Origin: a virus
Lineage: Duplodnaviria > Heunggongvirae > Uroviricota > Caudoviricetes
IMG/VR virus record: IMGVR_UViG_2706794694_000014
DNA: 41,126 bases
Strand: one strand, 5' to 3'
In this document: positions 4,351-41,126 of the stretch, piece after piece
How positions within the stretch are numbered: position 1 is the stretch's first letter
Layout of the letters: the number at the start of each line of letters is the position of its first letter
Notes under the pieces: generated by a model
What the model was told of the DNA's origin: nothing
The model's input: only the letters and a program-made list of their open reading frames with translations
Database searches by the model: none
Program-made: the position numbers and the translations under genes

Positions 4351-5413
4351 TCAGAATTTATAACCGACACCCACGATGAAACCGTCAGTGCGCCAGTCGC
4401 CACTGCCGGAGCCTTCATAAGCAATATCAATGGCCACGGATTCGGTCGGGTTAAACTGCACGCCAGCTCCCCACGCCAGAGACGTGTTGCTGTGGCGACC
4501 GTCATCACTTCCGGTCAGCACGTCGTGCGTTTTCCCCTTATTGTCAGTTACGCGGATATAATCCCCGGAAAAAGTCGACACACGGCTGTAAGCCACACCC
4601 GCCATCGCATACGCGCTGAACCANNNNNNNNNNNNNNNNNNNNNNNNNNNNNNNNNNNNNNNNNNNNNNNNNNNNNNNNNNNNNNNNNNNNNNNNNNNNN
4701 NNNNNNNNNNNNNNNNNNNNNNNNNNNNNNNNNNNNNNNNNNNNNNNNNNNNNNNNNNNNNNNNNNNNNNNNNNNNNNNNNNNNNNNNNNNNNNNNNNNN
4801 NNNNNNNNNNNNNNNNNNNNNNNNNNNNNNNNNNNNNNNNNNNNNNNNNNNNNNNNNNNNNNNNNNNNNNNNNNNNNNNNNNNNNNNNNNNNNNNNNNNN
4901 NNNNNNNNNNNNNNNNNNNNNNNCCAGCGGGTATCGCTGTAACGGGTCAGCTGGCGATTCTTGTCTCCTGCATAGCTGAACGACGTCACCATCCCCAGTG
5001 TGTCCGTAAACTCATAACGGTATTTCACGTTAATCCCGTTCAGATCATCACTGCCGGGAACGTTCGTCCGGGCATGAAGATACCCCGCGCTCAGCGTGGA
5101 CTGATGTTCAGACGCCCATGCAGGCGCACCGGATACGGACGGAATCTTCATGCCAGCGGGTATCGCTGTAACGGGTCAGCTGGCGATTCTTGTCTCCTGC
5201 ATAGCTGAATGACGTCACCAGCCCCAGCGTATCCGTAAACTCATAACGGTATTTCACGTTAATCCCGTTCAGATCATCACTGCCGGGAACGTTGGTCCGG
5301 GCATGAAGATACCCCGCGCTCAGCGTGGACTGATGTTCAGACGCCCATGCAGGCGCACCGGATACGGCCAGACAAATGGCTGCGGACAAAATTGCTGCAC
5401 AAACTTTACGCAT
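4351..5413 (-). CDS. lom: Lom-like outer membrane protein (Ail/Lom family), disrupted in assembly by a 300-nt N-run and a ~228-bp tandem duplicate of its 5' part
   Basis: N-terminus MRKVCAAILSAAICLAVSGAPAWASEHQSTLSAGYLHARTNVPGSDDLNGINVKYRYEFTDTLG and C-terminus ...DIAYEGSGSGDWRTDGFIVGVGYKF match lambda Lom; 4924-5151 nearly duplicates 5152-5380. Confidence 0.8.
4624..4923. other. N-run (300 nt) inside lom
   Basis: Run of n characters. Confidence 0.99.
4924..5151. repeat. Tandem duplicate (~228 bp, a few mismatches) of lom 5' coding region 5152-5380
   Basis: Direct comparison of the two segments; junction encodes ...TRWHEDSVR then restarts at the signal-peptide sequence VSGAPAWA. Confidence 0.85.
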
Positions 5414-5424
5414 AATTACCTCTC

Positions 5425-5465
5425 GCTTTTCTGCAATAAAAAAGGCGTCATTCCTGACGCCCTTT
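5425..5465 (-). terminator. Rho-independent terminator downstream of J (tJ-like)
   Basis: Minus strand ggcgtca-ggaa-tgacgcc followed by ttttttatt; A-run on the other side, so possibly bidirectional. Confidence 0.7.
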
Positions 5466-5483
5466 ATTGGGGTTATAAATATT

Positions 5484-8400
5484 TCAACGAATACTGATGC
5501 CGGAAGCGGCTTTTTTGGTCACAATCACCGTACAGTCGGTGATATTGCCTGCCCCCTGATTGCCTTTCTGGAAAATCTTAAACTCCAGAGTGACGCTTCC
5601 CCTGCCACTCGGCATATCAATAACTGCACTGTAACTACCGGGAATGGCCCCTTTAGTTTCTCTGGATGCGATTAATACGCCGTTTTTGCGAACTTCAAAA
5701 CCATAACCCGTGTATCGCGTGCCTCCTGGGTTATTTCCGCTCCCCGGATCGTCATACGCTATACCGTTAAAAATAATGGGCGGAATAATAATCTGGCGGT
5801 CAAAGTTATGATCATCGCTGATGGTGACTGTAACCGTACCGTTTGGTGTTTCCGTGTTACCCCACGTACCGACTTTTTTCGGGAAGGCTTTTGATACAGC
5901 TTTAACGAAATCTCCTCTGACCTGGGTCGCCTCCAGCATGCCCTTAATCGTACAGTTCTGGTTAATCGTGACATTGTTGAGCGTCCCTGAATTTGCATTC
6001 ACATTACCGCTGATATCCGCATTTTTAGCGGTCAGCTTTCCGTCTGGTGTCAGGGAAAATGCCGGCGGATTTCCACCGCTGGTAATGGTGGGAGCCGTCA
6101 GGCGTTTCAGGAACACGTCATTCATGAATATCTGGTTGCCCTGCGCCACAAACATCGGCGTTTCATTCCCGTTTGCCGGGTCAATAAACGCGATACGGTT
6201 AGCGGCAACCAGAAACTGGCTCAGTTTGCCTTCCTCCGTGTCCTCCATGCTGAGGCCAATACCCGCGACATAATGTTTGCCGTCTTTGGTCTGCTCAATT
6301 TTGACGCCCCACATGGCATTCCACTTATCGTTGGCGTCCTTCCACTCTTTCGAAAACTCCTCCAGTCTGCTGGCGTTATCCTCCGTCAGGTCGACTTTTT
6401 CCAGCAGCTCCTGGCCGAGATGGGATTCGGTTATCTGGCCTTTGAAAAAATCCAGGTAACCTTCCGCATCATCGCTCGCCCGACCGACAGCCTCCACGAA
6501 TGCTGATTTGCCGACGGTGTTCACACTGCGGATATAAAAGTAATAATCATGGCCCGGCTTAATATTGATACTGGCGGCTATCCAGTACAGCCCCGTGCCA
6601 AGGTAGCGGGCTGTGGTTTCAACCTGCCTGATATCCGCAATCCGTTTTTCCGAGAACCAGAACTCAAACTGTACCGTCGGGTCATAAACCGCAAGATGCG
6701 GCGTGGCGGTTATCTGAAAATAGCCCGGCGTCAGCTCAATCCGCGACGGCGCTGCCGGTGCGGCAATCCGGAACGATACCGACGCCGGATCGCCCTGCTG
6801 CCCCCACGCATTTACTGCCCGGACTGTCAGCCTGTAGTTCCCCAGAGCCAGTTGTGTGAAGCGGTAAGTGGTTTCCGTCGTCCGGGCCGTGCTGACCAGC
6901 CGCTCACGGCCGTCATCCGCTGCCACGGTCAGGCGAAGCAGGAAGCTCACGCCCTTCACCACCTTCGGCGTGTCCCAGCGGGCCAGCACCTGGTATTCCC
7001 CGCTGTCTGCGGTGACTTCTGCGGTCAGGTGCTGCACCGCTGGCGGCGTGACACCATTTACCGTGCCGCTCTGGTCGCCGTCAAAGTGCGCCCCGTTATC
7101 CACGATGGCCTCTTTTTCCGGTACATGCTGCACGGCAGTGATGGCATACGTGCCGTCGTCGTTCTCACGGATACTCACGCAGCGGAACAGGCGCTGGCGC
7201 AGCGTCGGCAGCTTCAGCCCCCATACGCTGTATTCAGCAACGCCGTCAGGAACACGGCTCACTTTCACCTTCACGCCGTCGGTGACGGACTGAACCTCCA
7301 CGCTGACCGGACTCCCCTGCCCGTCAACCAGGCTTATCAGCGTGGTGCCGGAAGATGGCAGCGTGATTTCACGGTCGAGCGTCAGCGTCCGGGTCTGGCT
7401 GTTTACCGCCAGCACGCGCCCGCCGGTGCGGATACCGGCATAGTCATCATCGCAGATTTCAATGACATCGCCCGGTACATGGCGAAGCCCTTCGGCACCC
7501 ACGCTGAAGTCCACGGTCTGCGTTTCCAGCAGTTCTGTTTTAATCAGCCACAGCCCGGCGCGGTGTGCCTGCCCCCGGCTGGTACAGCCAAAAGCATCCA
7601 TCTTCGTGACGTTACGACCGTAACGGGCAATGGCCTGCGTGTCCTCCACAAGCTCTGTCGCCGTCTCCCAGCCGTTATTCGGGTCAATCCAGTTCACCTC
7701 AACGGCATTATGGCGGTCCTTCAGGGCGCTGAAGCTGTAGCGGAACGGCGCACCATCATCCGGCATCACCACATTACTGCGGTTATAGGTCCACACCTTA
7801 TCCGACGGTCGGTCCTGCACGAACGTCAGCGTCTGCCCGTTCCATACCGGCATACAGCGCATCGCCGAGCAGAAATCACTGAGCACATCCCACGCCTTGC
7901 GCTGTGTGGTCAGGTACGCATTACAGGTGATGCGCGGCTCCGTGCCGCCAAAACCGTCCGGCACCGACTGATCGCAATGCTGGCCGATGACATACAGCGC
8001 CCATTTGTCCACATCCGCCGCACCAAGACGTTTCCCCATGCCGTAGCGCGGATGGGTCAGCATATCCCACAGACACCAGGCCATGTTGTTGCTGTATGCT
8101 GGCTTAAACGTTCCGTCCCAGATACCGCTGTATTGCCGCGTCTGCGGGTTATAGCTCGACGGCACCTGCAGAATGCGCCCGCGCAGATGATAATTACGGC
8201 TCACCTGCTGGCTGCCGAACTGCTCCGAATCCACCTGCACGCCGACCAGTGCCGTGTTCGGGTAGCACTGTTTCACATCGATGATTTCGGTGTATGACGA
8301 CCAGAGCGTTTTGTTCTGCAGCTGGTCTGTGGTGCTGTCTGGCGTCATCCTGCGCATCCGTATATTGAACGGGCGCGGCGGCAGGTTACCCACCACCACC

Positions 8401-10251: not shown

Positions 10252-11158
10252 TTACTGCGAAAGTTTGTTAATGGAAAGGAAGCCGCCAAAGTTGCCGACG
10301 TTATTGCGAAACTTACAGCCGCTCAGGCATTTGCTGCATTTATCCTTCGTGATATCGGACGTCGGCTGATCATATTCATCCGCGACCGCCGGACCGTGAT
10401 AACCGCACTCATCGCCGCGATAGGTCCAGGTGCAGGTGTTGGCCAGCATGATACGTCCCGGAAAAACAGCGCCATCCGTTTCCGTCGGCGTGGACAGTAC
10501 AAANNNNNNNNNNNNNNNNNNNNNNNNNNNNNNNNNNNNNNNNNNNNNNNNNNNNNNNNNNNNNNNNNNNNNNNNNNNNNNNNNNNNNNNNNNNNNNNNN
10601 NNNNNNNNNNNNNNNNNNNNNNNNNNNNNNNNNNNNNNNNNNNNNNNNNNNNNNNNNNNNNNNNNNNNNNNNNNNNNNNNNNNNNNNNNNNNNNNNNNNN
10701 NNNNNNNNNNNNGAGGCACTCACCGCGCTCAGTTCGCTGCACTGCTCGATGCGCCAGCGGCTGATCACCTCCTGCTCCGGATCGGCGTCACTGTTTCCGT
10801 TGACGAAGTTCACCGCATCCAGAAAACGGGCGTAAACCTTACGCCGGACCACCGTTCCGCCGACCAGACTCTGCAGATCTTCCGCCATCCCGGTGACCAT
10901 GCCGTGCAGGTTAGAAACCGTCAGTGTCGGACGGGCAGCACTGCCCTTGCCGTTCAGTTCAAAACCACTCCCCTGAATGGGATACGGCTGATACTGTCGC
11001 CCCTGCCAGGTGACCGGCTCACCTTTTTCGTTCTGCTCATTACAGAAAAAATAACGTTCTCCACCGACCTCTGTCAGATCGATTTCCCAGAGCACCACCT
11101 GGGCTGACTGAGTGAGGCGTGTCGTCTCATGATGTGTTTCCTGTGGAATATCCTGCAT
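10252..11158 (-). CDS. L: Minor tail protein L (interrupted by N-run; flanks are contiguous in protein sequence)
   Basis: MQDIPQETHHETTRLTQSAQVVLWEIDLTEVGGERYFFCNEQNEKGEPVTWQGRQYQPYPIQGSGFELNGKG...; C-terminal Cys cluster TCTWTYRGDECGY...CSKCLSGC. Confidence 0.9.
10504..10712. other. N-run (209 nt) inside L
   Basis: Run of n characters; flanking codons encode ...SELSAVSA(S) and FVLSTPTETDG, which are adjacent in lambda L as recalled. Confidence 0.99.
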
Positions 11159-25982: not shown

Positions 25983-26292
25983 NNNNNNNNNNNNNNNNNN
26001 NNNNNNNNNNNNNNNNNNNNNNNNNNNNNNNNNNNNNNNNNNNNNNNNNNNNNNNNNNNNNNNNNNNNNNNNNNNNNNNNNNNNNNNNNNNNNNNNNNNN
26101 NNNNNNNNNNNNNNNNNNNNNNNNNNNNNNNNNNNNNNNNNNNNNNNNNNNNNNNNNNNNNNNNNNNNNNNNNNNNNNNNNNNNNNNNNNNNNNNNNNNN
26201 NNNNNNNNNNNNNNNNNNNNNNNNNNNNNNNNNNNNNNNNNNNNNNNNNNNNNNNNNNNNNNNNNNNNNNNNNNNNNNNNNNNNNNNNNNNN
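25983..26292. other. N-run (310 nt) removing most of the holin gene
   Basis: Run of n characters. Confidence 0.99.
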
Positions 26293-26364: not shown

Positions 26365-26431
26365 AACCCCACCTCGCAGATGCGGGTGCTGTGTAATGGA
26401 AATAAAAAGGCCACCTGACGTGGCCACCAGA

Positions 26432-27484
26432 TTATTTCCCCACCAGCTCGTTTATCTCTTTCACTGTCTGATTAAACCGCTCTGACTCAAGCTCAACACC
26501 TAAGGCCCGACGCCCCAGCGCCATTGCTGCTTTTATTGTGGAACCGGATCCCATAAAAAAATCAGCAACCAGATCACCTGGTCGACTACTGGCATTGATT
26601 ATTTGCCTGAGCATATCCGCCGGTTTCTCACACGGATGTTTCCCCGGGTAGAACTGAACGGGTTTATGCATCCAGACATCGGTATAAGGCACGGAGACTG
26701 ATACGGAGAAATAGCGCCGGAGAGATTTAAACTCATCCAGCAATTCAGAATATTTACGATTCAGTGAATCATAAGATGCCACCAGCTGGTGGTGTGGTTG
26801 TTCCAGTTGTTGTTCCTGAAACTTCTCTGCCGCTATACGGGAAAACAGTGCCTGTAACTTCCGATAGTCAGCCTCATTCGGCAACTGCCACTGACTGGCA
26901 CCAAACCAGTGGGAAACCATATTTTTCTTACCTGTGGCTTCGGCAATTTGTTTTGCCGTTATACCCAGTTCGGCACGAGCATCCCTGAAATACGATATCA
27001 GCGGTGCCATTATGTGCTGTTTGAGTTCCCTTTCTTTTGCCGCATAGCCGTCACTTTTGCCGCGATATGGCCCCTGGTAATGTTCAGCAAACAGAACGCG
27101 CTCTGTGGCAGGAAAATATGCGCGCAGACTTTCTTTATTACACCCATTCCAACGTCCGGACGGCTTCGCCCAGATGATATGGTTAAGCACGTTGAAACGT
27201 TCACGCATCATGATCTCAATATCAGATGCCAGGCGATGCCCACAGAACAGGTAAAGGCTTCCGGCAGGTTTCAACACCCGCCAGAACTGGGCCAGACAGT
27301 GGTCCAGCCACTTAAGGTAATCTTCGTCCCCTTTCCACTGATTGTCCCAACCGTTGGGTTTCACCTTGAAGTAAGGCGGATCGGTAACAATCAGGTCAAT
27401 GGAATCATCAGGCAGGGACTGAATAAAATGCAGGCAATCAGCGTTGATTAAATCAACACTGTTTATTTTTACAGTATTTTTCAT
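26432..27484 (-). CDS. DNA methyltransferase (N6-adenine/N4-cytosine, beta class), orphan
   Basis: IVTDPPYF (motif IV) near the N-terminus; no adjacent restriction endonuclease. Confidence 0.8.
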
Positions 27485-27634
27485 GGATCAGTAAGCGTAA
27501 CTCTGGTAGGCTCACTCTGCTTTTGCGCTAAAGCAGTGGGCCGTGGTTCGCTTGTGACCAGTAAGCATGAGCGAATGGCTGGCAGGTGCTACCAACACCC
27601 ACCAGCCGCCCATTTTCACAGCAGGAAACCGCCA

Positions 27635-27862
27635 TTACTGGCAGCGTCTGAATTTATTCCCGTACCCGCCGTTATCCTTCGCCAGACCCGCCAGAACTAA
27701 CTGAGTCAGTATTAACTGGCACCGGGCTTCGCTTACTCCGGTAGTTCTCGTCATCATGCGTGGCGTTACCCACTTGTCAGCAGGTAAGAAATGAAGGACT
27801 GCGGCGGCGGTTTCTGTCATATCTTGCTGTTTTAGCATGTCTTTTTCCCTTCTGGTTAACAT
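27635..27862 (-). CDS. Hypothetical small protein (possible winged-helix DNA-binding)
   Basis: 75-aa ORF between the moron and the MTase; start codon uncertain. Confidence 0.35.
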   Translation of the reverse strand: MLTRREKDMLKQQDMTETAAAVLHFLPADKWVTPRMMTRTTGVSEARCQLILTQLVLAGLAKDNGGYGNKFRRCQ

Positions 27863-27959
27863 GACATACCAATAACTCTTGTCTAAAAAGCCAGCAAGAT
27901 AAAAAGTCAGTATTCACGACCACCAGCGTGTTTACTGTACTGCACCAAGTTTACGGGTA

Positions 27960-27988
27960 CAAAAAACCCGCTCAGTGGCGGGTTGCTA
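27960..27988 (-). terminator. Rho-independent terminator downstream of the lipoprotein moron
   Basis: Minus strand aacccgcc-actga-gcgggtt followed by ttttttg. Confidence 0.65.
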
Positions 27989-28061
27989 TCACAGCTATAT
28001 ATTTACTTATTATGCCGTTACTAACATTTATCTTCGACATATAATCGAAAACAAGGTTTGC

Positions 28062-28487
28062 TTAAAACTCTGCTTTCATTTTATCCGGGAATTTTTTATT
28101 TGCAGCATAATAACTACCAAGTACATAAGCGTTCATTTGCTGCTCTACATCAACCCGACATGCCGCACTAGAACAAGCTCCACTGATAAGCCCAAAAGAA
28201 CTCCCTTTAGCAGAGAGATCAGCTTTGATTTCCTCTACAGTGTTTTTCCCCATAGCAACTACACACCCTGTCACAATATATCTAGCTTTCACATCATCCA
28301 TGCTAAGGATAGTAGTTTTCGCAATTTTGCTGTATCCATCATTTTTATAAACATCCATGGCAAACGCACGGCAATCTGTATAATACGGACTTGCTTTAAC
28401 TTGCGAATACTCAGGTAATTTCATACCTGCACAACCAACTAAACAAAAACCTATCGCTGCTATTAATACCTTTTTCATTACAGTCAT
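28062..28487 (-). CDS. Moron lipoprotein (141 aa, signal peptide + lipobox), function unknown
   Basis: MKKVLIAAIGFCLVGCAG lipobox; AT-rich segment flanked by two near-identical hairpins; sits at the Q-to-lysis locus (position of stx in Stx phages). Confidence 0.7.
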   Translation of the reverse strand: MTVMKKVLIAAIGFCLVGCAGMKLPEYSQVKASPYYTDCRAFAMDVYKNDGYSKIAKTTILSMDDVKARYIVTGCVVAMGKNTVEEIKADLSAKGSSFGLISGACSSAACRVDVEQQMNAYVLGSYYAANKKFPDKMKAEF

Positions 28488-28633
28488 AACCTAGAAGCAT
28501 CATTGAAACTAATTTATTAAATAACCATCGAGTTTCTGGAATACAGACGTTAACCATCTCTCCAAAATCTAAAAGATAATAAGAAAAAATGTTTAACGCA
28601 CCAATCCATTTCATAGTTTCATGAGACATCAGG

Positions 28634-28664
28634 CACAAAAAACCCGCTCAGCGGCGGGTTTTTG
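28634..28664. terminator. Bidirectional rho-independent terminator (tR'-like) about 100 nt downstream of Q
   Basis: aaaaaacccgc-tcagc-ggcgggttttt, with A-run and T-run on either side. Confidence 0.7.
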
Positions 28665-28689
28665 ACATTTACCAACGGTAGACATACAA

Positions 28690-28730
28690 GGCCCATCGTT
28701 GAGAAAATCTTATCCATATTTTTTGAAAAA
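28690..28730 (-). promoter_or_regulatory. Candidate late promoter PR' (-35 TTGCAT, 17-nt spacer, -10 TAAGAT on minus strand)
   Basis: Sigma-70-like hexamers in the Q-proximal intergenic region upstream of the tR'-like hairpin. Confidence 0.3.
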
Positions 28731-28766
28731 TGCAAGTATCACGTCGACATCTTCGGCGAAAATTAT

Positions 28767-29519
28767 CTATCTTGTCACTTTTCTCAATTGCGATTCAGCA
28801 TACGCTTCTTCCTGCCAGCACTTTGTAACCAGTTTATTAATAACGTCTGCATATCCTTTGTACCACTGATAATCCGTCAGGTCCGGTACCAGTTTCTGGA
28901 CATGATGCCGCGCCAGTGTGGTTGGTAAACGGCTAAACCGGTTGCCATTGCAACGCCCACAAATCTTATAAACAGGCACACCATGAAGCCGGGTTCTTTT
29001 TTCATCCAGGACAATACCTTTACCCTTACACCCTCTGCACGCTGTGCTGACTTCTCCCTTACCATGGCAATGCTGACATAGTTCCTTCACCCACTCTTCC
29101 TTGATAACAGATTCCCCGCTTCTGGAGTGTTTCACCACTTCGCGCAATACATTATGAAATCCAGTACCAGCACAATGCTCACAGCGAGCCTTACTTGCCG
29201 CAGACCTGGAATAATCAGCAAAGGCAAAATTCACAAGGTAAGGGATGATCTGTAACCGGGTTTCTTCACTCAATTTGTTCAATGTCGGGTTATCCAGTGC
29301 CATCGCGTAATTGAGCAGACCTTCAATCGCAAATTGAGGATCCTGAACACCAACTTTTGCCAGGAATAAGGCAAACCCAAGCGGTGCTTTCGACTGCACC
29401 ATCCCCTGCGCAGCCATCACATCCGTAATCGTTAAACCACCTGAGCCTGTCGCCGGTGCGTCATCGCTCAATTTTGGAGATTTTGGGGAGTAATATTTTG
29501 GTAAGGCTTCAAGGTTCAT
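28767..29519 (-). CDS. Q: Late-gene antitermination protein Q (QuuD/phage-82-type)
   Basis: MNLEALPKYYSPKSPKLSDDAPATG...; Zn-finger Cys clusters CEHCAGTG, CQHCHGKGE, CRGCKGKG, CGRCNGNR; resembles E. coli QuuD. Confidence 0.9.
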   Translation of the reverse strand: MNLEALPKYYSPKSPKLSDDAPATGSGGLTITDVMAAQGMVQSKAPLGFALFLAKVGVQDPQFAIEGLLNYAMALDNPTLNKLSEETRLQIIPYLVNFAFADYSRSAASKARCEHCAGTGFHNVLREVVKHSRSGESVIKEEWVKELCQHCHGKGEVSTACRGCKGKGIVLDEKRTRLHGVPVYKICGRCNGNRFSRLPTTLARHHVQKLVPDLTDYQWYKGYADVINKLVTKCWQEEAYAESQLRKVTR

Positions 29520-29532
29520 GCTCGTTCTCCAC

Positions 29533-30528
29533 TTACGCCAATACGCCAATTGCCAGCGCACGATCGATAAAACGAAATATCAGCTCCAGCTGGGAGCCAT
29601 ACTTCTCTTCAAATGCCACGGTATCCGCATGCAGCTCGTCGTGATGCTTTCTGCACAAAGGCAACACAAAGAGGTCATGCGCTTTTGTACCCATTCCACC
29701 CTGACCGTGGCCTATCAGGTGGTGGGGATCATCAGCAGGCTTTCCACAACATGCACACGGCTGTGTCTTAACCCAGCGCGTGTACTTTTCATTAACCCAG
29801 CGGCGGCGTTTTGGGCGTAACATAAAAGACTCCGGCGACTCCGGATCCACTTTCAGCGCCAGCACCTTTTTTGCCTTATCCTGGATGATGCTGGTGGCAG
29901 GAACCGAAGGCACAAGGTCACTTTCCCGGGTGACAGACGGCACAACAGGCTTTGGTAATCTCAGTGCCTTACGGGCTGCACTTTCCGGTAAGGCATCCGC
30001 CAGGTCATTACGAATCAGCCACCAGCACAGTTCCGGCATTGTCACAACGTGACTATCATCAAAACCGAGATCCCGACGCACAACAGACAACACCCAGCGG
30101 GCACAGTTATCCGTTGCCATTGATTCCAGCCGTTCCGTGAACTGATCGCGCAGCTGGTTATCGCAGTGCCAGCACAGACGGATTGCGCCCGGAGCGTGTC
30201 GCATTGTGGTCATGTTCTCGCTGTGCCAGTCGGAATGAGGCCACTGGCAGCCTTTTTCACGAAGTAACCAGCTTTCAAGACATTCCACGCCACCAGCACG
30301 ACGGATCACTGCCTCATTGCGGAACACGGCCCGAACGGCAGGATCATCCGCCAGCGGTTGTGATGCCGCCGGAACGGCACCACTGGCGAAAGATGAATAA
30401 CGTTCCGGCTCAGGCTCCAGCAGAACACGCCCCTGCATAAACAGGGGCATCAGCTCTGAACCTGGCCTGAACAATACGATCCCCATACGCGGGGCAATTT
30501 CAGGGGTCAGTAGTGCTCTCACGGTCAC
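29533..30528 (-). CDS. DUF968-like protein with HNH-like His motif
   Basis: C-terminal CACCGKPADDPHHLIGHGQGGMGTKAHD...CRKHHDELH; typical nin-region position. Confidence 0.6.
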   Translation of the reverse strand: MTVRALLTPEIAPRMGIVLFRPGSELMPLFMQGRVLLEPEPERYSSFASGAVPAASQPLADDPAVRAVFRNEAVIRRAGGVECLESWLLREKGCQWPHSDWHSENMTTMRHAPGAIRLCWHCDNQLRDQFTERLESMATDNCARWVLSVVRRDLGFDDSHVVTMPELCWWLIRNDLADALPESAARKALRLPKPVVPSVTRESDLVPSVPATSIIQDKAKKVLALKVDPESPESFMLRPKRRRWVNEKYTRWVKTQPCACCGKPADDPHHLIGHGQGGMGTKAHDLFVLPLCRKHHDELHADTVAFEEKYGSQLELIFRFIDRALAIGVLA

Positions 30529-30529
30529 C

Positions 30530-31339
30530 TCAATGAACGGTATCGAGCAGCTTTAACAGCTCAGGGAATCGGGATTCGAAGAAATGCGGCTGCGTCTCGC
30601 GCGGATTTGCAGGACTGGTGATGTTCTTGCCGAACATGCAGCCTTTCGCCGTCAGCGACCAGAATTTTTTGATGTTGTTAATCGCGGTACGGCTGTATCG
30701 TTCGCGTTGTTCAACGATCCCCAGCTTCACCATCTGGTGATATGCCTGATTAGCCGTCAGGCGGATACCATACTGCTTCAGCAGTGCACTCAGCGACAGC
30801 GTGGGGCGACTTGAGCCATCAGGCGCGTCAGCAGGAGCATCAATGGCATAGCGCGGTGCCAGATTCGGTAAGCCAACAGCCTCCTGAAGCTTCTGACAGG
30901 CTCCAAGCACTGATGAGTTAGACAGATTTAATTCCCGGCGCATAAAGTCCAGCAGGATCACGCCAGCCTGCATCTTGTCAGCAGCCTGTCCGGATAATTT
31001 TTCCGGTGCGCTGGTTACCATGTCGAAAGTACGGATCACCTTCAGATGGAATGACGGGCTGATCCACATTGCATAGGCATACACCAGTTCTTTGCAGACA
31101 TACGTCCCCTGGTTATTTCCGCCATTAATGACGCTAACTGGTTGATTTTGTTCCAGAGGCGGAATTCCACCCTCGGTGAAAAGTTGTTCAATCAATTCAC
31201 AGGTTTGCTTATTGGAGAGCCAGTATTTCGGGCGGTTTTTTTGTTCTCCCCCGGCTGCCCTGTGCAGATCGTTCAGGCTGTAACGCCCATAAGCATCACG
31301 ACGAACTTCAATACCATCAATGACCATCAGATTATTCAT
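30530..31339 (-). CDS. KilA-N domain protein
   Basis: MNNLMVIDGIEVRRDAYGRYSLNDLHRAAGGEQKNRPKYWLSNKQTCELIE (KilA-N-like); GAGGAG RBS. Confidence 0.7.
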   Translation of the reverse strand: MNNLMVIDGIEVRRDAYGRYSLNDLHRAAGGEQKNRPKYWLSNKQTCELIEQLFTEGGIPPLEQNQPVSVINGGNNQGTYVCKELVYAYAMWISPSFHLKVIRTFDMVTSAPEKLSGQAADKMQAGVILLDFMRRELNLSNSSVLGACQKLQEAVGLPNLAPRYAIDAPADAPDGSSRPTLSLSALLKQYGIRLTANQAYHQMVKLGIVEQRERYSRTAINNIKKFWSLTAKGCMFGKNITSPANPRETQPHFFESRFPELLKLLDTVH

Positions 31340-31358
31340 ACTTCGTTTCTCCTCTTGA

Positions 31359-31748
31359 TCAGGCGGCTGCACCCGCCGGTTTCTCATACTTACTGATAGT
31401 GATCTCGACCTTCCCTTTCTGGATAACCGGTCCCCACTCCACCAGCATTCTTTTCACCTGGCTGTCGTCTTCCCACACCCCCGCGTGGGTCAGGGCGTCA
31501 AACAGCGCCTTGTTATAGTTGTCCAGATCGCGGATCCGGTTATCCGGAGGAAACAACACGATCTCCACTGAAGCAGGTGCCGACGTTGGTTTTGGCAGAC
31601 GACGTAACTGCTCAACTATTGCTGCGCACGCCGCGCTCTGAAATTTTCGCCCCGCCGCGCTTATCAGGCTCTTACCAGCAAATGCCCCTTTGTTGGGGTG
31701 TCGCCAGTACGTGTTCACGCTGGGCGGGAAAGGCAGGATCAGCTTCAT
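31359..31748 (-). CDS. rusA: Holliday junction resolvase RusA
   Basis: 129 aa; PPSVNTYWRH...IRDLDNYNKALFDALTHAGVWEDDSQV (RusA catalytic Asp motif). Confidence 0.85.
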   Translation of the reverse strand: MKLILPFPPSVNTYWRHPNKGAFAGKSLISAAGRKFQSAACAAIVEQLRRLPKPTSAPASVEIVLFPPDNRIRDLDNYNKALFDALTHAGVWEDDSQVKRMLVEWGPVIQKGKVEITISKYEKPAGAAA

Positions 31749-32071
31749 ACTTTCAGGCCTCTCTCATGTAACCAGTGGGTTGCACGCAGCCTGGCGTTTT
31801 CCTCACCGGCAAGCAGTGAGCGGATAATCCCGACCGCCTCGCTGTCGTCGTCCTTCACCGCGGTATGAAGAGTGATACCCCGGGCCATGCCACGCTTTAT
31901 CGTGATGACGCCTTTTTTCTCCAGTGCGCGAAGATGTTCCACCGCTGCATTCACTGAACGGTATCCCAGCATGGTTGCCACCTCCTGATTGGTTGGCGGG
32001 AAGCCACGTTCTTTCTGGTAAGAAATCAGCATATCCAGCACCTGCTGCTGGCATTGAGTTAACGTCGTCAT
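31745..32071 (-). CDS. LexA N-terminal DNA-binding-domain-like protein, lacking the S24 peptidase domain
   Basis: LTQCQQQVLDMLISYQKERGFPPTNQEVATMLGYRSVNAAVEHLRALEKKGVITIKRGMARGITL parallels the LexA N-domain; only 108 aa. Confidence 0.65.
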   Translation of the reverse strand: MTTLTQCQQQVLDMLISYQKERGFPPTNQEVATMLGYRSVNAAVEHLRALEKKGVITIKRGMARGITLHTAVKDDDSEAVGIIRSLLAGEENARLRATHWLHERGLKV

Positions 32072-32721
32072 GCCGCCATCTCCCTGACCAGTTTTTCCGC
32101 CTGCTGGCGAACCTGCGCCAGAAACGCCTCACCACATGCCTCAAGTTCATCGCGCCCGATGTAGCTGATTGCCGGTCCCTTCCAGGTCTTGTCGAAAACA
32201 GCAATAGCACCAGCGAAGAAAGCGCCTGTCGGCACCTGCTTCTCGTCCTTCGGGATAAACCAGGCAGGCAGTTCAAAACCAATACGCCCGCGAATAAAAG
32301 CAATATGATCTGCATCTTCCGGCCACCACACTTCGCTGGTGGCAGCTTTGATCAGGAAAACATAGCGTCCGCCCTTATCACGCATGGCACTGGCATGTTT
32401 CATGATGTAACGCATGCCGGTGATGTATTGCCCTTCATGCTGACTGGCGCGGCTGTACGGGGGATTACCAAAGGCAGCACCTTTAAGCTCCGCAAGACGT
32501 TCAGACCAGTCATGCGCCAGCGCGTTGTCTTCCGCAGTGTAATAAGCGGCACATTTGGCGTTATCACCATCAGTGAACAGATCCAGAACAAACGGGCCAA
32601 ACAGGGTGTTAATTCCCCAGAAAATGTTATCCGGCGTGCGCCACTGATCGCCCACTTCCTTCAGTTCATGGGCTGGTTTGTTCCGCAGCTCCACCAGCGC
32701 CTGGCAATATTTATTACTCAT
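32068..32721 (-). CDS. Phage Dam-like DNA N6-adenine methyltransferase
   Basis: FGNPPYS motif; size and nin-region context; track ORF extends to 32754 (possible alternative start). Confidence 0.8.
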   Translation of the reverse strand: MSNKYCQALVELRNKPAHELKEVGDQWRTPDNIFWGINTLFGPFVLDLFTDGDNAKCAAYYTAEDNALAHDWSERLAELKGAAFGNPPYSRASQHEGQYITGMRYIMKHASAMRDKGGRYVFLIKAATSEVWWPEDADHIAFIRGRIGFELPAWFIPKDEKQVPTGAFFAGAIAVFDKTWKGPAISYIGRDELEACGEAFLAQVRQQAEKLVREMAA

Positions 32722-33215
32722 TAAGCCCCCACGTAATTCCCTGACAGATACCACTCTTCACCCGATGCAGCGCGCTTGCTGCTTTTCCGTAAGCACCGCT
32801 CACGACGCGCCAGAAAATTGTTTCGTTCTGGCTGGGAGTGGCTTTCACGGAATGCCGCCATCCACACCGTTGCAGCACGACGGTATAAGCCCCTGGACTC
32901 CAGTTCTTCCGCCTGGCGGGTCAGGCACAAAATCACCCGGGGATCGTTAGTGCCGACATAGAAATTGCGCACAGGTCTGGTTTCACGAACTGGTTGTGGT
33001 TCCGGCTCCTGCGCTCTCTCAGTCAGGCGTGGGAAATGTCTGCGTGTATCTCCTTCATAACGGTGAGCCACACGCCCACTCTGACGTAACTTGCTTGCTG
33101 ACTGCAGAACGCGCTGCCGTGAGTAACCTGCAAAAGCATCCGCAATGTCTCCGGAAGTACACCCCGGATGGGCTTCAATGAATTTCTGAACTTCATTCAA
33201 AAGACTCATGATCAC
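32721..33215 (-). CDS. PerC-family-like transcriptional regulator (putative)
   Basis: ...AEELESRGLYRRAATVWMAAF resembles the PerC/Pch signature; from memory. Confidence 0.4.
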   Translation of the reverse strand: MIMSLLNEVQKFIEAHPGCTSGDIADAFAGYSRQRVLQSASKLRQSGRVAHRYEGDTRRHFPRLTERAQEPEPQPVRETRPVRNFYVGTNDPRVILCLTRQAEELESRGLYRRAATVWMAAFRESHSQPERNNFLARRERCLRKSSKRAASGEEWYLSGNYVGA

Positions 33216-34030
33216 CCCCTGAATCCTGCCGGGATCTGGCTGTAGTCCACGTTGTCGTAACTGGCTTTGAAGTACGGGTCCTCGCGTCTGGCTGCAGATA
33301 CCGCAGGAACTTCCCAGAATTCTTCGAAATGACGATCCGGACCAAAGAACGTGACAGCCTGTTTCACAAATTGTGTGCCGCTGTTACCCATCGCAGATAC
33401 CCATCCCGCGTAGCGTTTCACACCTTCCAGCATGGTTTCGGGGTTTACTCCCTCATTCAAACGGGCTTTCCAGGCTTTGAAGGCTGCAGATTTTGAATTG
33501 CCACCAGCACGTTTGGGATATGCCAGCCATGCCTGCTCAAACTCCGGAGAGTATTCCGGTCGGTTTGAACGAACTCGCACGGACTCATCAACTGATGCAC
33601 CAACAGCTATTGGTTCATTGACTGGTTCTTTGACTGGTTCAAAAGAGTGACTGGTTCTGGGTGAATCTCCTGCACTACCCCCTGGTGCAACTCCTGCACT
33701 ACCTGGTGAATTTGCTGCACCAGATAGTGAATTATTTGCACTACCCCCTAGTGAATCTCCTGCACCATCCAGATGAAGGAGATAGATATTACTTGAGTTA
33801 CCTTTTTCACCTTTCCGGGTGACTTTTTTTACCAGCCCGGACTCACAAAGGGCCGCAATATGATTCATCACAGAACGTTTGCTAATTTCGCACTGGTCAG
33901 CAATATGCTGGTAGCTGGGCCAGCACTCACCCTGATCGCTGGCATTATCAGCCAGCTTGATCAGAACCAGTTTTCGCAATGGATTACCCACTCGAATTTT
34001 CATCGCTTTAACCATCAGCTCCATACTCAT
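33212..34030 (-). CDS. Putative replication initiation protein with N-terminal winged HTH
   Basis: N-terminal NPLRKLVLIKLADNASDQGECWPSYQHIADQCEISKRSVMNHIAALCESGLV; low-complexity Gly/Ser linker; position of O. Confidence 0.5.
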   Translation of the reverse strand: MSMELMVKAMKIRVGNPLRKLVLIKLADNASDQGECWPSYQHIADQCEISKRSVMNHIAALCESGLVKKVTRKGEKGNSSNIYLLHLDGAGDSLGGSANNSLSGAANSPGSAGVAPGGSAGDSPRTSHSFEPVKEPVNEPIAVGASVDESVRVRSNRPEYSPEFEQAWLAYPKRAGGNSKSAAFKAWKARLNEGVNPETMLEGVKRYAGWVSAMGNSGTQFVKQAVTFFGPDRHFEEFWEVPAVSAARREDPYFKASYDNVDYSQIPAGFRG

Positions 34031-34263
34031 GCTGCACCTCCGAGATGCTTCATGTTTTTTCCGGAGCGAAAGGCTATAAGCGGCATACTGACGCGGTAAT
34101 TACGGCCCAGCGGTTCACAAATCACCTTCTGGCATTCACGGTCAACCAGGCTAACACGTAGAACATGCCCTGCAGGCGTGGTGTACCACTGCCCAACTGT
34201 AGGAATTGATATTTTTTTACGCTGAAGCAAACGGCAAATATTGAGGATCAACGGATTAAGCAT
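34027..34263 (-). CDS. Hypothetical protein
   Basis: 78-aa ORF coupled by overlap to both neighbours. Confidence 0.4.
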   Translation of the reverse strand: MLNPLILNICRLLQRKKISIPTVGQWYTTPAGHVLRVSLVDRECQKVICEPLGRNYRVSMPLIAFRSGKNMKHLGGAA

Positions 34264-35092
34264 GACGATGCCCTCCGCTGATATTCAGGAGACGGTGAAT
34301 ATGAAAATTAGCCTTATCCGCCAGACGAATACGTTCAGCTTGCAAGTTAAGAAGGGTTTCTACCAGAACCTGATGTGCCTGCGGATCCGAAAGAGTTACC
34401 TTGCGCAGAGCACGTAGTGCAGTTGTTACATAACTGAGTTTATGTAAGTCTTCATCATTCAGACGAGTGAGGGCTGGGACAGTAGCCATGATGGCAGCCT
34501 CCTTGATCGGTGAAATACTTCCACCACCGGAAACGCCAATTTCGCTGGTGGTGAACTGAACGGGGTTGGCGTAACCGGTGATCAAGGAAACCGGCGCATC
34601 TTTCGATGCCCCCGCCCAGCCCACCATAACTTTGATGTGAGCAAATGCGGACGATAAAAAAGACGCTGGCGCGTCATATATCGCCTTGATCAATTCCAGG
34701 ACGCCAATCCCGGCACCCGCTTTATAAGGTGCCTGAACAGTGTAACGTCCCGGAATGGCAGAATCAATGTGCTGGTGGTCCTTCACACTCAACAAAATCA
34801 CGCCTGAATTTCCACAAAGGACTAAAGCACTCATGCGGGTAGTCTTTGCGAAGATAGATAACGCGCTGTGTTTCTGGCTCCCAACGAATAACATGAACAT
34901 AAAGTCCTCTTCCGTCACGAAACCAGCGGTTAAGTTCCTGCACAACTCGCCCCCCACAGTCAGGTAAAGTTCTCTGTGGTTACTTACAGCCAGGTGATTT
35001 GGTAATCTGCATTCATGCCGTAACAACAGGTGTTCAGCGACGCTGACCACCAGCTGTTGCGACAAACGGTTATTTGCCGTTAAACTGTTCAT
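34256..35092 (-). CDS. Hypothetical protein (replication-region, unrecognised)
   Basis: 278-aa ORF translationally coupled to neighbours; no motif recognised. Confidence 0.5.
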   Translation of the reverse strand: MNSLTANNRLSQQLVVSVAEHLLLRHECRLPNHLAVSNHRELYLTVGGELCRNLTAGFVTEEDFMFMLFVGSQKHSALSIFAKTTRMSALVLCGNSGVILLSVKDHQHIDSAIPGRYTVQAPYKAGAGIGVLELIKAIYDAPASFLSSAFAHIKVMVGWAGASKDAPVSLITGYANPVQFTTSEIGVSGGGSISPIKEAAIMATVPALTRLNDEDLHKLSYVTTALRALRKVTLSDPQAHQVLVETLLNLQAERIRLADKANFHIHRLLNISGGHRHA

Positions 35093-40137: not shown

Positions 40138-40557
40138 TTACTCATCATCAATAGATGATACGCAATATTTATTTTTAAATTTAAGGTTCTTTGGCGTAAC
40201 TTCATCAGATATATCAAAACCGTCCAGAATTCTATTGAATGTAGCTTCTGGCATATCATCATGAACGGAAATCTCACCCGATCGCTGCTTTCTAACCATG
40301 TTATCCACTCGCCAAATTATAGCTTCAGCGTAAACAACATAACTTGGATGCTTGATAAAGCGATGATCACCAGAATTCAAGACGCAAGACGGATCGTGGG
40401 GGACACCATCCTTGATACTAGAAATATTAACAACTAAAACACAATAACAATCGTTAACGGGGTAATAAACAGGATCATTACAAATCACATGAAGATGATT
40501 GCATGGCCCAGTTGGGGCAAGCACAGTTCCTTTCCTGTATGGCTGATAATCCGTCAT
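40138..40557 (-). CDS. Unrecognised Cys/His-rich protein (139 aa), candidate toxin/effector partner of the Panacea-domain protein
   Basis: 4-bp overlap with the upstream Panacea gene; GPCNHLHVICNDPVYYPVNDCYCV...HDPSCVLNSGDHRF Cys/His cluster; no family recognised. Confidence 0.6.
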   Translation of the reverse strand: MTDYQPYRKGTVLAPTGPCNHLHVICNDPVYYPVNDCYCVLVVNISSIKDGVPHDPSCVLNSGDHRFIKHPSYVVYAEAIIWRVDNMVRKQRSGEISVHDDMPEATFNRILDGFDISDEVTPKNLKFKNKYCVSSIDDE

Positions 40558-41126
40558 GATAATTGCAAAGAAAATTCCTTAAGTTTCTGAGATTCTTCCA
40601 TTTTGCCAATTATACGATTAGCCTCATCCTCGCTTTTACCCTCACTGATCAGCATTTCTTTCAGGTCTATAGGCTTACGAGAATTGCCAGGATTGTGCCA
40701 CTCTGGACAAACGCTTTCTAAATGCGTCATGTTTGCGAGATCAAATCGGTTCATATGCCCATACAGAGAATAGATTTCATCTAAAATCCGGATATCTGCA
40801 CGGCTCAACTCATCAAAGACCTCGTCTGCATCCATTTCCCTCGGATCTGAACGCAACAACACATCATGCCCGTTCGTCTCTATCAGGTTGTACCAGTAGT
40901 CACCAATACCTTCAGCCTTACCACGAATCAAGTTCAGCGTATTCGACATGACTGGACCAAATTTCATAGAGTAAAGGCTATCTTCGCCGATCATCCTGCC
41001 ATGCTTCAAAATCGACTTGCGGTTAGACAGATAGAGCAGCTTCATCAATTTCAGATATGCCATGCGCCCACCTCGCTTAAGAAGTAGGTATGCAGCCATT
41101 TGAGCTACTTTTTCTTCGCAAAACAT
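40554..41126 (-). CDS. Panacea (DUF4065) domain protein, putative PanA-type antitoxin
   Basis: MAYLKLMKLLYLSNRKSILKHGRMIGEDSLYSMKFGPVMSN matches the DUF4065 signature (K-L-x-K-L-L-Y ... GPV) as recalled; ATG is the last codon of the window. Confidence 0.65.
   Translation of the reverse strand: MFCEEKVAQMAAYLLLKRGGRMAYLKLMKLLYLSNRKSILKHGRMIGEDSLYSMKFGPVMSNTLNLIRGKAEGIGDYWYNLIETNGHDVLLRSDPREMDADEVFDELSRADIRILDEIYSLYGHMNRFDLANMTHLESVCPEWHNPGNSRKPIDLKEMLISEGKSEDEANRIIGKMEESQKLKEFSLQLS

Follow-up and report, generated by a model that had tools for sequence, protein, structure and literature searches.

Two unrelated orphan adenine methyltransferases in a lambdoid prophage: probable staged self-methylation against restriction, and a structured leader RNA before one of the genes

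M.EcoGII, an adenine methyltransferase (MTase) of an Escherichia coli O104:H4 prophage, methylates adenine in any sequence context and, acting alone in vivo, modifies up to 86% of plasmid adenines (PMC5778455). Neither it nor M.EcoGI gives a methylation signal in the native lysogen, and constitutive expression of these enzymes harms the cell, M.EcoGII slowing growth (PMC5778455); M.EcoMV, the homologue from ST131, is likewise untranscribed (PMC4659465). The reconstructed ancestor Anc291 is non-specific and active on both DNA and RNA (PMC11551740). PhiOS31_p25, a Serratia prophage enzyme, blocks MboI as well as six endonucleases that are sensitive to N6-methyladenine (m6A) and recognize different sites (HinfI, PfeI, SchI, Hin1II, Tru1I and TasI), and its authors give its homologues in phiP27 and IME1369_02 as 67 and 66% identical (PMC7556043). 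Here we describe two MTase genes in a stretch of 41,126 nucleotides (nt) from IMG/VR record IMGVR_UViG_2706794694_000014 (hereafter the window, whose numbering is used throughout), which holds a lambdoid prophage of the mEp460/SfV/cdtI type read on the minus strand. The genes are termed MTase A (26432..27484, −) and MTase B (32068..32721, −), position 26432 being the final base of the MTase A stop codon and 32721 the A of the MTase B ATG. We consider it likely that they are two intact adenine MTases without a restriction endonuclease (REase), drawn from unrelated catalogued families and placed in different temporal units, which carry out staged anti-restriction self-methylation of phage DNA. 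This anti-restriction interpretation is the standard one.

MTase A is a 350-residue beta-class N6-adenine MTase of the M.EcoGI/M.EcoGII family. It matches PF01555 (N6_N4_Mtase) with E=2.2e-42 over profile positions 1–220 of 221, and its motifs stand in the order of the beta class and of that family, DPPY at residues 35–38 and FMGSG at residues 310–314. BLASTP aligned it full length and collinearly with M.EcoGII, 281/349 positions being identical (∼80–81% globally) and 315/349 positive, with two gaps. This is far above the similarity to the nearest site-specific relative, M.PflMI, which is only ∼27% identical to M.EcoGII (PMC11551740). Identity to M.EcoGII is higher in the N-terminal core (88%) than in the target recognition domain (TRD) and C-terminal parts (76%), and identity to Anc291 is 88%. 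In tblastn searches of phage records MTase A was 100% identical to the ‘putative DNA methylase’ of phage cdtI, 98.3% to SfV orf48, 80–85% to the methylases of Stx2a and Stx2c phages, 82.6% to that of phiP27, 64.2% to that of Morganella phage IME1369_02 and 56–60% to N15 gp52 and PY54 gp60. Searched by sequence, chains of the Protein Data Bank (PDB) gave matches to generic beta-class MTases only (8urk/9c3u, M.RsrI, M.MboIIA and CcrM). The gene also has the family's setting, being prophage-borne, orphan and located in the late region beside the lysis genes. The first-pass annotation had placed a beta-class MTase with a DPPY motif between Q and the lysis genes, which is borne out, and had left it as a generic N6A/N4C enzyme, a label that gives way to membership of the M.EcoGI/M.EcoGII clade. 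Since MTase A lies, in sequence space, between enzymes shown to be non-specific, a discrete specificity is unlikely, and judged from its sequence the protein should be read as an M.EcoGII-type, context-free adenine methylase, by extension from the activities of M.EcoGII, the ancestors and PhiOS31_p25.

The surroundings of MTase A point to late expression. Antiterminator Q is encoded at 28767..29519 (−; PF03589 Antiterm, E=6.9e-54, and so annotated in a 99.9%-identical prophage). About 100 nt past its stop codon, sequence reading placed a tR'-type intrinsic terminator (28640..28665, −; AAACCCGCCGCTGAGCGGGTTTTTTGTG), of which a second copy lies at 27965..27984 (−; AACCCGCCACTGAGCGGGTTTTTTGT). 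A candidate late promoter, TTGCAT-17-TAAGAT, was read by eye between Q and the first of these terminators. Behind the MTase A stop codon, towards the holin gene, a consensus scan found a further terminator-like hairpin (26409..26425, −; GGCCACGTCAGGTGGCC then TTTTT). N15 has an annotated promoter and terminator before its MTase homologue and an annotated terminator behind it, in the same place as the hairpin in the window. In N15, PY54 and a Vibrio phage the homologue lies directly 5' of the holin/lysis cassette, and in the Stx2a phage WGPS2 it lies between Q and the tRNA-stx2AB genes. That the gene keeps its position as the last before lysis agrees with its being expressed from antiterminated late transcription alone, and from this position MTase A is expected to be off in the lysogen and on only late.

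MTase B, of 217 residues, is a phage N-6-adenine MTase in the nin-equivalent region, sited between the replication gene and Q, as the earlier description of a Dam-like NPPY enzyme in the nin region had it. It matches PF05869 (‘Dam’) with E=1.1e-45 and 155.7 bits (cutoff 28.1) over profile positions 3–167 of 169, and TIGR01712 (phage_N6A_met) with 255.3 bits (cutoff 97.05) over positions 1–165 of 165. A longer, GTG-started open reading frame (ORF) reaches to 32754; the annotated start in 99.9%-identical genomes is 32721. The NPPY motif occupies residues 86–89, and D47, N86, P87, P88 and Y89 are invariant or nearly so in homologues down to 25–32% identity. When T1 Dam, phage 80 Dam and 23 representatives with identities as low as 32% are aligned, W27, T29, P30, D47 and NPPY prove invariant or at least 90% conserved. 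Degeneration of the catalytic motifs, which would have undermined the annotation, is thus absent from both enzymes: DPPY/FMGSG and NPPY are intact and invariant or nearly so in homologues, and the E-values exclude chance. MTase B has the Rossmann-type fold of MTases dependent on S-adenosylmethionine. A search of PDB chains by its sequence returned nothing at E<0.1, and superposition of its structure on E. coli Dam (EcoDam) and T4 Dam extended over 107–112 residues only.

For the specificity of MTase B the family offers a guide. T1 and HP1 Dam are GATC-specific. Profile scans verified that T1 Dam and the Dam of Staphylococcus aureus phage 80 belong to PF05869. The 175-residue nin-region methylase of 933W, which its record annotates as ‘similar to methylases of HP1 and T1’, shares 31% identity with MTase B (E=6e-12) and on this sequence likeness appears to belong to the same family. 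The S. aureus prophage enzyme PamA, in which P65 lies inside NPPY, confers DpnI sensitivity and is reported to methylate GATC; the motif of phage 80 Dam occupies residues 64–67, consistent with P65 of PamA. A study of O111 separately lists M.EcoVT2Dam with predicted specificity GATC. Our best guess, by analogy within PF05869, is that MTase B would methylate GATC. We discarded avoidance of GATC in the DNA as a clue to Dam activity, the site occurring at 0.75 of its Markov expectation when other 4-bp palindromes range from 0.56 to 1.08, which makes it uninformative. A literature search on the function of SfV Dam found nothing.

MTase B is tightly packed between its neighbours. Its start codon overlaps the stop codon of the gene for a PerC-family regulator (32721..33215, −; PF06069) in the sequence TAATG, and its stop codon overlaps, in ATGA, the start of the gene for a 108-residue protein that consists of a LexA DNA-binding domain (LexA-DBD) alone, with no peptidase domain (31745..32071, −; PF01726, E=2e-19). 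The latter gene overlaps rusA in turn. No sigma-70-like promoter was called on the minus strand between 31300 and 36200, so none lies directly before MTase B, and the sole minus-strand terminator-like hairpin in that interval, at 34675–34662, lies upstream of the replication gene. Given the overlapping stop and start codons and the lack of a promoter-like site, we read MTase B as part of the early-right operon.

Neither gene belongs to a type II restriction–modification system in which a cognate REase adjoins the MTase, the neighbours being a winged helix-turn-helix (wHTH) gene, the holin gene, perC and the LexA-DBD gene. Scans with Pfam, PADLOC and PHROGs of the MTase neighbours and of the unassigned ORFs, including those at the right end, found no restriction endonuclease, and the 99.9%-identical prophage has none among its RefSeq-annotated genes. 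Type II REases vary widely, and some can be missed by hidden Markov models (HMMs) and other profile searches, which leaves this negative strong, not absolute. The original assignment of two orphan MTases with no cognate restriction enzyme nearby accordingly survives these searches. The HNH/DUF968 protein (29533..30522, −) was considered as a hidden nuclease partner and rejected. It is a conserved nin-region gene (phrog_96) that also occurs in phages of other gene content, it has no PADLOC match, and 1.5 kb separate it from MTase B and 2 kb from MTase A.

The gene integrity, motifs, family, gene order, overlapping codons, terminator-like hairpins, prevalence and lack of a detectable REase established here, together with the non-specific activity, lysogen silence and toxicity that the literature records for close relatives, allow us to infer expression timing, a GATC specificity for MTase B, hypermethylation of virion DNA and an anti-restriction benefit. 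MTase B would be translationally coupled within an early-right operon that runs through the replication gene, perC, dam, the LexA-DBD gene and rusA on to Q, would be made as a delayed-early product after induction and, by family analogy, would probably methylate GATC on replicating phage DNA. MTase A, the last gene before holin in a terminator-flanked stretch of the Q-dependent late transcript, would be on only when concatemers are being packaged. Late, context-free m6A could then shield progeny genomes broadly, in the host entered next, from restriction of Types I, II and III that is sensitive to adenine methylation.

Several points weigh against this reading. About 20% of positions differ between MTase A and M.EcoGII, including in the central region expected to hold the TRD, and the M.EcoGII and ancestor sequences that we compared were machine-read from the supplement of PMC11551740 and carry a few small errors. 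MTase B is only 25–43% identical to PF05869 members of reported specificity, which makes GATC a family-level guess. A GATC enzyme would be redundant for protection beside a non-specific late enzyme, so that the Dam protein may have another role. The candidate late promoter was not called by the consensus promoter scan. A genome with m6A throughout would also be open to attack by m6A-dependent Type IV nucleases. A literature search found no report of hypermethylated virion DNA for phages of the SfV, mEp460 or cdtI type, and one on phage-DNA hypermethylation by M.EcoGII relatives found nothing.

The role first proposed for dual methylation, protection against host restriction or an epigenetic action on host gene expression, holds up in its first half, which is the explanation given in the literature (PMC5778455), and is unlikely in its second half for the late enzyme, whose relatives are silent in lysogens and, once expressed, harmful, and which is shielded by terminators. 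We think it unlikely that either MTase, or both, would be made in the lysogen and influence host genes epigenetically. There are precedents: S. aureus PamA, an NPPY enzyme of PF05869 type like the PF05869 Dam of phage 80, methylates host DNA and raises virulence through its catalytic activity, lysogen cultures of the Stx phage Phi24B were found to express its 175-residue nin-region ‘dam’ (PMC3342100), and a prophage MTase of another type, MT-A70, changes the frequency of spontaneous induction (PMC10810198). Spontaneously induced cells are, however, always present in lysogen cultures, and M.EcoGI, M.EcoGII and M.EcoMV are without methylation signal or transcript in lysogens, besides the slowed growth caused by M.EcoGII (PMC5778455, PMC4659465). 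MTase A sits behind two or three terminators in a Q-dependent operon, and MTase B, with no promoter-like site of its own, is coupled within a repressed early operon and, if it targets GATC, would be invisible beside host Dam, which methylates >97% of sites. The case for an epigenetic role is weak for MTase A; for MTase B it can be argued only weakly, from Phi24B dam and PamA.

Two further alternatives concern the substrate of MTase A. The drop in identity to M.EcoGII to 76% in residues 116–275 could mean that a diverged central region gives this beta-class enzyme a discrete target; M.PflMI falls in the same wider similarity network (PMC11551740), and the closest solved structures, 8urk and M.RsrI, were deposited as ordinary DNA MTases. 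We nonetheless find such specificity quite improbable, since M.EcoGII at 80% identity, the ancestors at 88% and deeper, and PhiOS31_p25, relatives of which are 64–83% identical to MTase A, are all non-specific, M.PflMI is itself remote from M.EcoGII (only ∼27%; PMC11551740), and the differences between MTase A and M.EcoGII are scattered and mostly conservative (315/349 positives). It is very improbable that the enzyme acts on RNA or is redirected by a partner, with the adjacent wHTH protein as targeting subunit in the manner of PNB-2 with the MT-A70 enzyme of phiPA8 on 16S rRNA, a prophage MTase–wHTH holoenzyme that prefers rRNA (PMC10810198). M.EcoGII and the reconstructed ancestors do methylate RNA in vitro (PMC5778455, PMC11551740), and the wHTH gene, with its predicted winged-helix fold, is conserved directly 5' of the MTase from lambdoid phages to N15 and PY54. 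M.EcoGII alone, though, reaches 86% of plasmid adenines in vivo and so needs no partner for DNA (PMC5778455), in N15 the annotated promoter and terminator before the MTase stand between it and the wHTH gene on its upstream side, so that co-expression is not required, and the homologue in a Vibrio phage has no wHTH gene. The phiPA8 rRNA methyltransferase was also rejected as being the same gene, because it is an MT-A70 (DPPW) enzyme near the integrase end and of a different family (PMC10810198). Staged self-methylation by a context-free late enzyme and an early Dam-type enzyme remains our preferred explanation. It carries a practical correction. Because the tested members of the MTase A family are silent in lysogens, the comparison of lysogen and cured-strain methylomes suggested by the first-pass annotation would miss it, and finding no extra motifs in the lysogen is the expected outcome and refutes nothing; for a late, context-free enzyme of the M.EcoGII type, induced cells or virion DNA are needed.

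Between the wHTH gene and MTase A lies a structured 5' leader RNA of 137 nt that ends at the MTase A start codon (27482..27618, −), as supported by its fold, a covariance model and covariation. Its outer stem, P0 (UGGGC/GCCCA), closes over two elements, the long hairpin P1, which is variable in sequence, and another arm, P2; a third hairpin, P3, comes after the stem. The 150-nt spacer between the two genes has a minimum free energy (MFE) of −65.3 kcal/mol (z=−3.1, 0/200 shuffles), and the leader DNA can be aligned with those of Stx2a phage, N15 and PY54 although their MTase proteins are only 57–81% identical. The first retrieval of MTase A loci gave copies 98–100% identical, of no use for covariation, and the N15 and PY54 proteins served as further queries; the resulting 236 loci were reduced to 47 representatives, 34 of which were aligned, and a covariance model, R1, was built on the structure taken from the MFE fold of the window. 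R1 scores 122.9 bits at the leader in the window and finds exactly one sense copy 5' of the MTase in 77/81 MTase-bearing sources, including Vibrio and other non-seed loci. The same scan of 933W, T1 and Dam loci found no copy. Among our collected loci, copies lie at 4367–4503 in L010, 1372–1503 in L011, 1368–1503 in L012 and 1234–1364 in L013. The association was also approached from the RNA side, by scanning IMG/VR with a pattern of the RNA core only (AATGGGCG, 45–72 nt, GAACCAAGGCCCA): 76 stretches matched, the MTase started 52–55 nt downstream in 72 of them, and the other four had no stored downstream DNA. The leader (∼130–140 nt) thus occurs in lambdoid, N15-like, PY54-like and Vibrio phages and is exclusive to M.EcoGII-family MTase genes in the samples examined.

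In the model-fitted alignment, which is by construction fitted to the structure, 78.4% of cells pair against 65.3% in shuffles (0/500), the covariation score is 0.331 against 0.131 in shuffles (0/500) and at most 0.094 when partners are slid by 1–3 columns, and 25/32 base pairs show double changes. RNAalifold, run on the MAFFT and the model-fitted alignments, recovers the 5-bp outer stem only, missing the inner helices because the register of P1 differs from clade to clade; the inner helices are thus supported by the counts on the named structure and by register-independent folding. In the latter, all 55 of 55 distinct P1 sequences fold end-to-end as a single hairpin (median 11 bp, median z=−4.6), with weaker values for P2 and P3 (median z −1.4 and −1.6). 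A column-diagonal scan for more helices found only alternative pairings of UGGGC and AGGC with a conserved GAGCCUA box. G–U pairs are frequent in the leader helices, which favours the sense strand as the functional one. Over 27482–27618 Rfam 15 gave no match, either at the gathering threshold or at E≤5 with permissive filters.

The leader contains four mutually complementary G/C-rich segments (GGGCG, CGCCC, GGGCG and GCCC) and admits two exclusive folds, the UGGGC/GCCCA three-way junction and an AUGGGCG/CGCCCAU pairing that extends P1, and the folds computed for single sequences take now the one, now the other. Read from the sequence, these two folds suggest a switch, which might respond to a ligand, a protein or the enzyme itself or be purely kinetic, and which would confine synthesis of a toxic methylase to a narrow late window. 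A GATC site (TGATCCATG; 27485–27490, −) abuts the MTase A start codon. It is kept in E. coli and Klebsiella-type leaders and not in those of N15 and PY54 type, and might either connect the leader with the Dam of phage or host or just belong to the RNA element.

The product of the gene just 5' of the leader (27635..27838, −) is a stand-alone winged-helix protein of 67 residues (phrog_331, E=3e-26), for which a Pfam scan gave no match. N15 gp51, PY54 ORF59 and Stx2a gp28 also fall in phrog_331 by HMM, though they are only ∼20% identical to it, and some homologues carry the NCBI name ‘TrmB family transcriptional regulator’. Its AlphaFold (AF2) model (pLDDT 88) is a three-helix winged helix with a TM score of 0.81 to the winged-helix domain of TrmBL2; the Foldseek E-values are weak, as expected at 67 residues. 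By tblastn, homologues occur in 57 phage records, and in all records that were cross-checked they lie on the same strand, 150–190 nt 5' of the MTase. The protein could be a controller or partner of MTase A. It is possible, though we put it forward tentatively and would sooner bet against it, that M.EcoGII-family genes are under a dedicated and undescribed cis-regulatory device made up of the leader RNA and, in most lineages, the wHTH gene just 5' of it. The leader RNA and the wHTH gene may be the only potentially new matter here, and the leader may already be described outside Rfam, in literature beyond that which we covered.

Both lines have consequences beyond this prophage. Should virion DNA prove hypermethylated, this would matter for host range and the spread of prophages across restriction barriers, for sensitivity to m6A-dependent Type IV nucleases, and for the reading of nanopore or single-molecule real-time (SMRT) data from induced cultures. 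Should the leader be regulatory and undescribed, it would add a phage-specific class of cis-regulatory RNA, tied to an enzyme family in wide use as a reagent for chromatin footprinting, and would explain how phages keep a toxic methylase silent.

Positions 6400–41126 of the window are 99.9% identical to a prophage of E. coli A14. Along the minus strand the order is a CI-like repressor (itself on the plus strand), a CII-like gene, an Ash-family gene, the replication gene (33212..34030), perC, MTase B, the LexA-DBD gene, rusA (31359..31748, −), a KilA-N gene (30530..31339, −), the DUF968/HNH gene, Q, a terminator, a low-GC moron, the second terminator, the 67-residue wHTH gene, the leader, MTase A, the terminator-like hairpin, holin (partly N-masked), endolysin, Rz, terminase, head and tail. 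RusA, KilA-N and DUF968/HNH were each assigned from Pfam, PADLOC, PHROGs and annotation, and none is a restriction enzyme. The moron (28062..28487, −) encodes a lipoprotein-like protein of 141 residues, recognized by its signal/lipobox-like N terminus, phrog_4748 and a GC content of 39% in the GC profile. It is flanked by the near-identical terminators at 28640–28665 and 27965–27984 (AACCCGCCxCTGAGCGGGTTTTTTGT), and this pair resembles what a moron inserting into the late leader would leave behind. In N15 and PY54 the late-leader terminators are similar in sequence to the pair.

Pairing of the two MTases is not unusual. A 7.3-kb block with both genes has 96–100% identity in phages mEp460 and SfV and in Stx2c phages, and reaches at least 80% coverage both in 21 phage records, among them mEp460, SfV, Ayreon and Stx2c phages, and in 299 of 5,426 complete E. 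coli genomes (∼5%). Singly, MTase A occurs in 1,148–1,255 of these genomes (∼21–23%) and MTase B in 1,725–2,120 (∼32–39%). Both genes are ordinary, already catalogued and RefSeq-annotated, and stand in named phages (SfV 2002, cdtI and mEp460). Methylome papers on Shiga toxin-producing E. coli and on ST131 already include prophage MTases of this kind, which they take to be silent or impossible to tell from Dam (for ST131, PMC4659465).

Around the MTase B slot, relatives differ in content. Prophages of Cronobacter and Buttiauxella keep the LexA-DBD gene downstream of the MTase slot and carry, between it and dam, a gene for a protein of 587–660 residues with a weak PF00145 (C5 cytosine MTase) signature (L006–L009, ∼4861–6843). 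This suggests that the site collects modification genes, in keeping with a place for anti-restriction cargo; some phages of this type would thus have three MTases, the third predicted. The LexA-DBD protein was rejected as a partner of Dam, adjacency not being strict, with this large extra gene between the two in relatives. Many database proteins of 380 residues (P0004–P0016) are in-frame PerC–Dam fusions through a frame change at the end of perC, and a few of 292 residues (P0003/P0019) are Dam–LexA-DBD fusions with an internal deletion; both kinds are either natural variants or artefacts of assembly or gene calling at the overlapping junctions.

Runs of N at 1342–1574, 2854–3071, 4624–4923, 10504–10712 and 25983–26292 mask parts of the window. 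The last of these, ∼107 nt shorter than its counterpart in the A14 prophage, covers most of the holin and YdfR-type genes, immediately 3' of MTase A. At the left end (1–858, +) is a host gene for an ABC-3 family transporter, and the integration site therefore differs from that of the A14 relative, which is integrated at dusA. An Rfam match to IS009 (221 bits) lies at 1114–1312 (−), near the tail-fibre end of the prophage. Rfam matches at gathering level to C4 antisense RNA (82 bits; 34544–34631, −) and to the Hfq-binding small RNA isrK (64 bits; 34656–34732, −) fall in or beside the Ash-family ORF (34256..35092) and point to an antirepressor control module of P1/P7 or Gifsy type in the early region. 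The right end (40138–41126, −) holds a Panacea-domain (SocA-like antitoxin) gene with a small ORF upstream, a possible toxin–antitoxin or defence cargo for which that region gave no PADLOC match. In the A14 prophage a reverse-transcriptase gene and a SLATT-domain gene adjoin the integrase (L003, 8871–10770, outside the window) and are likely a retron or other defence cargo; a match to this pair was sought in the window and none was found.

Among described systems, T1 Dam, the 933W methylase, HP1 Dam and PamA/phage 80 Dam are, like MTase B, small single-domain NPPY proteins, and the 933W gene also lies in the nin region; MTase B differs from the T1 Dam, 933W and PamA group in two insertions, one after NPPY (ASQHEGQYITGM) and one around residues 150–166. 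By comparison with the alpha-class E. coli and T4 Dam proteins, MTase B has no PF02086 match and no separate DNA-recognition domain of the EcoDam type; it has an adenine-MTase fold with no near relative of solved structure and is not a member of the E. coli Dam family. The closest counterparts of MTase A are M.EcoGII and M.EcoGI from the C227-11 prophages, which are likewise beta-class proteins of 349–350 residues with an N-terminal DPPY, a central TRD and a C-terminal FxGxG, likewise prophage-borne and orphan, and have a close Stx2a-phage homologue in the same slot between Q and the late genes. MTase A departs from these O104:H4 alleles in ∼20% of its residues and is nearer those of cdtI, mEp460 and SfV (98–100%). 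PhiOS31_p25 of the Serratia prophage vB_SspS_OS31, by experiment relaxed or non-specific for adenine, is also encoded directly 5' of a holin/lysozyme cassette (PMC7556043) and shares with MTase A the homologues in phiP27 and IME1369_02 (82.6 and 64.2% to MTase A). It is more distant, and its upstream neighbours in OS31 are a putative toxin–antitoxin pair with no wHTH gene (PMC7556043). Hia5, Hin1523 and Nma1821 of Mu-like prophages resemble the MTase A family in that they are non-specific m6A enzymes encoded by prophages, show no activity in the lysogen and have been proposed as a substitute for Mom-type anti-restriction (PMC3299994). They are unlike MTase A in being alpha-class proteins, with FxGxG first and DPPY last, that are kin to EcoDam and DpnM and form an unrelated lineage (PMC3299994), so that MTase A and the Hia5 group share a convergence in function only.

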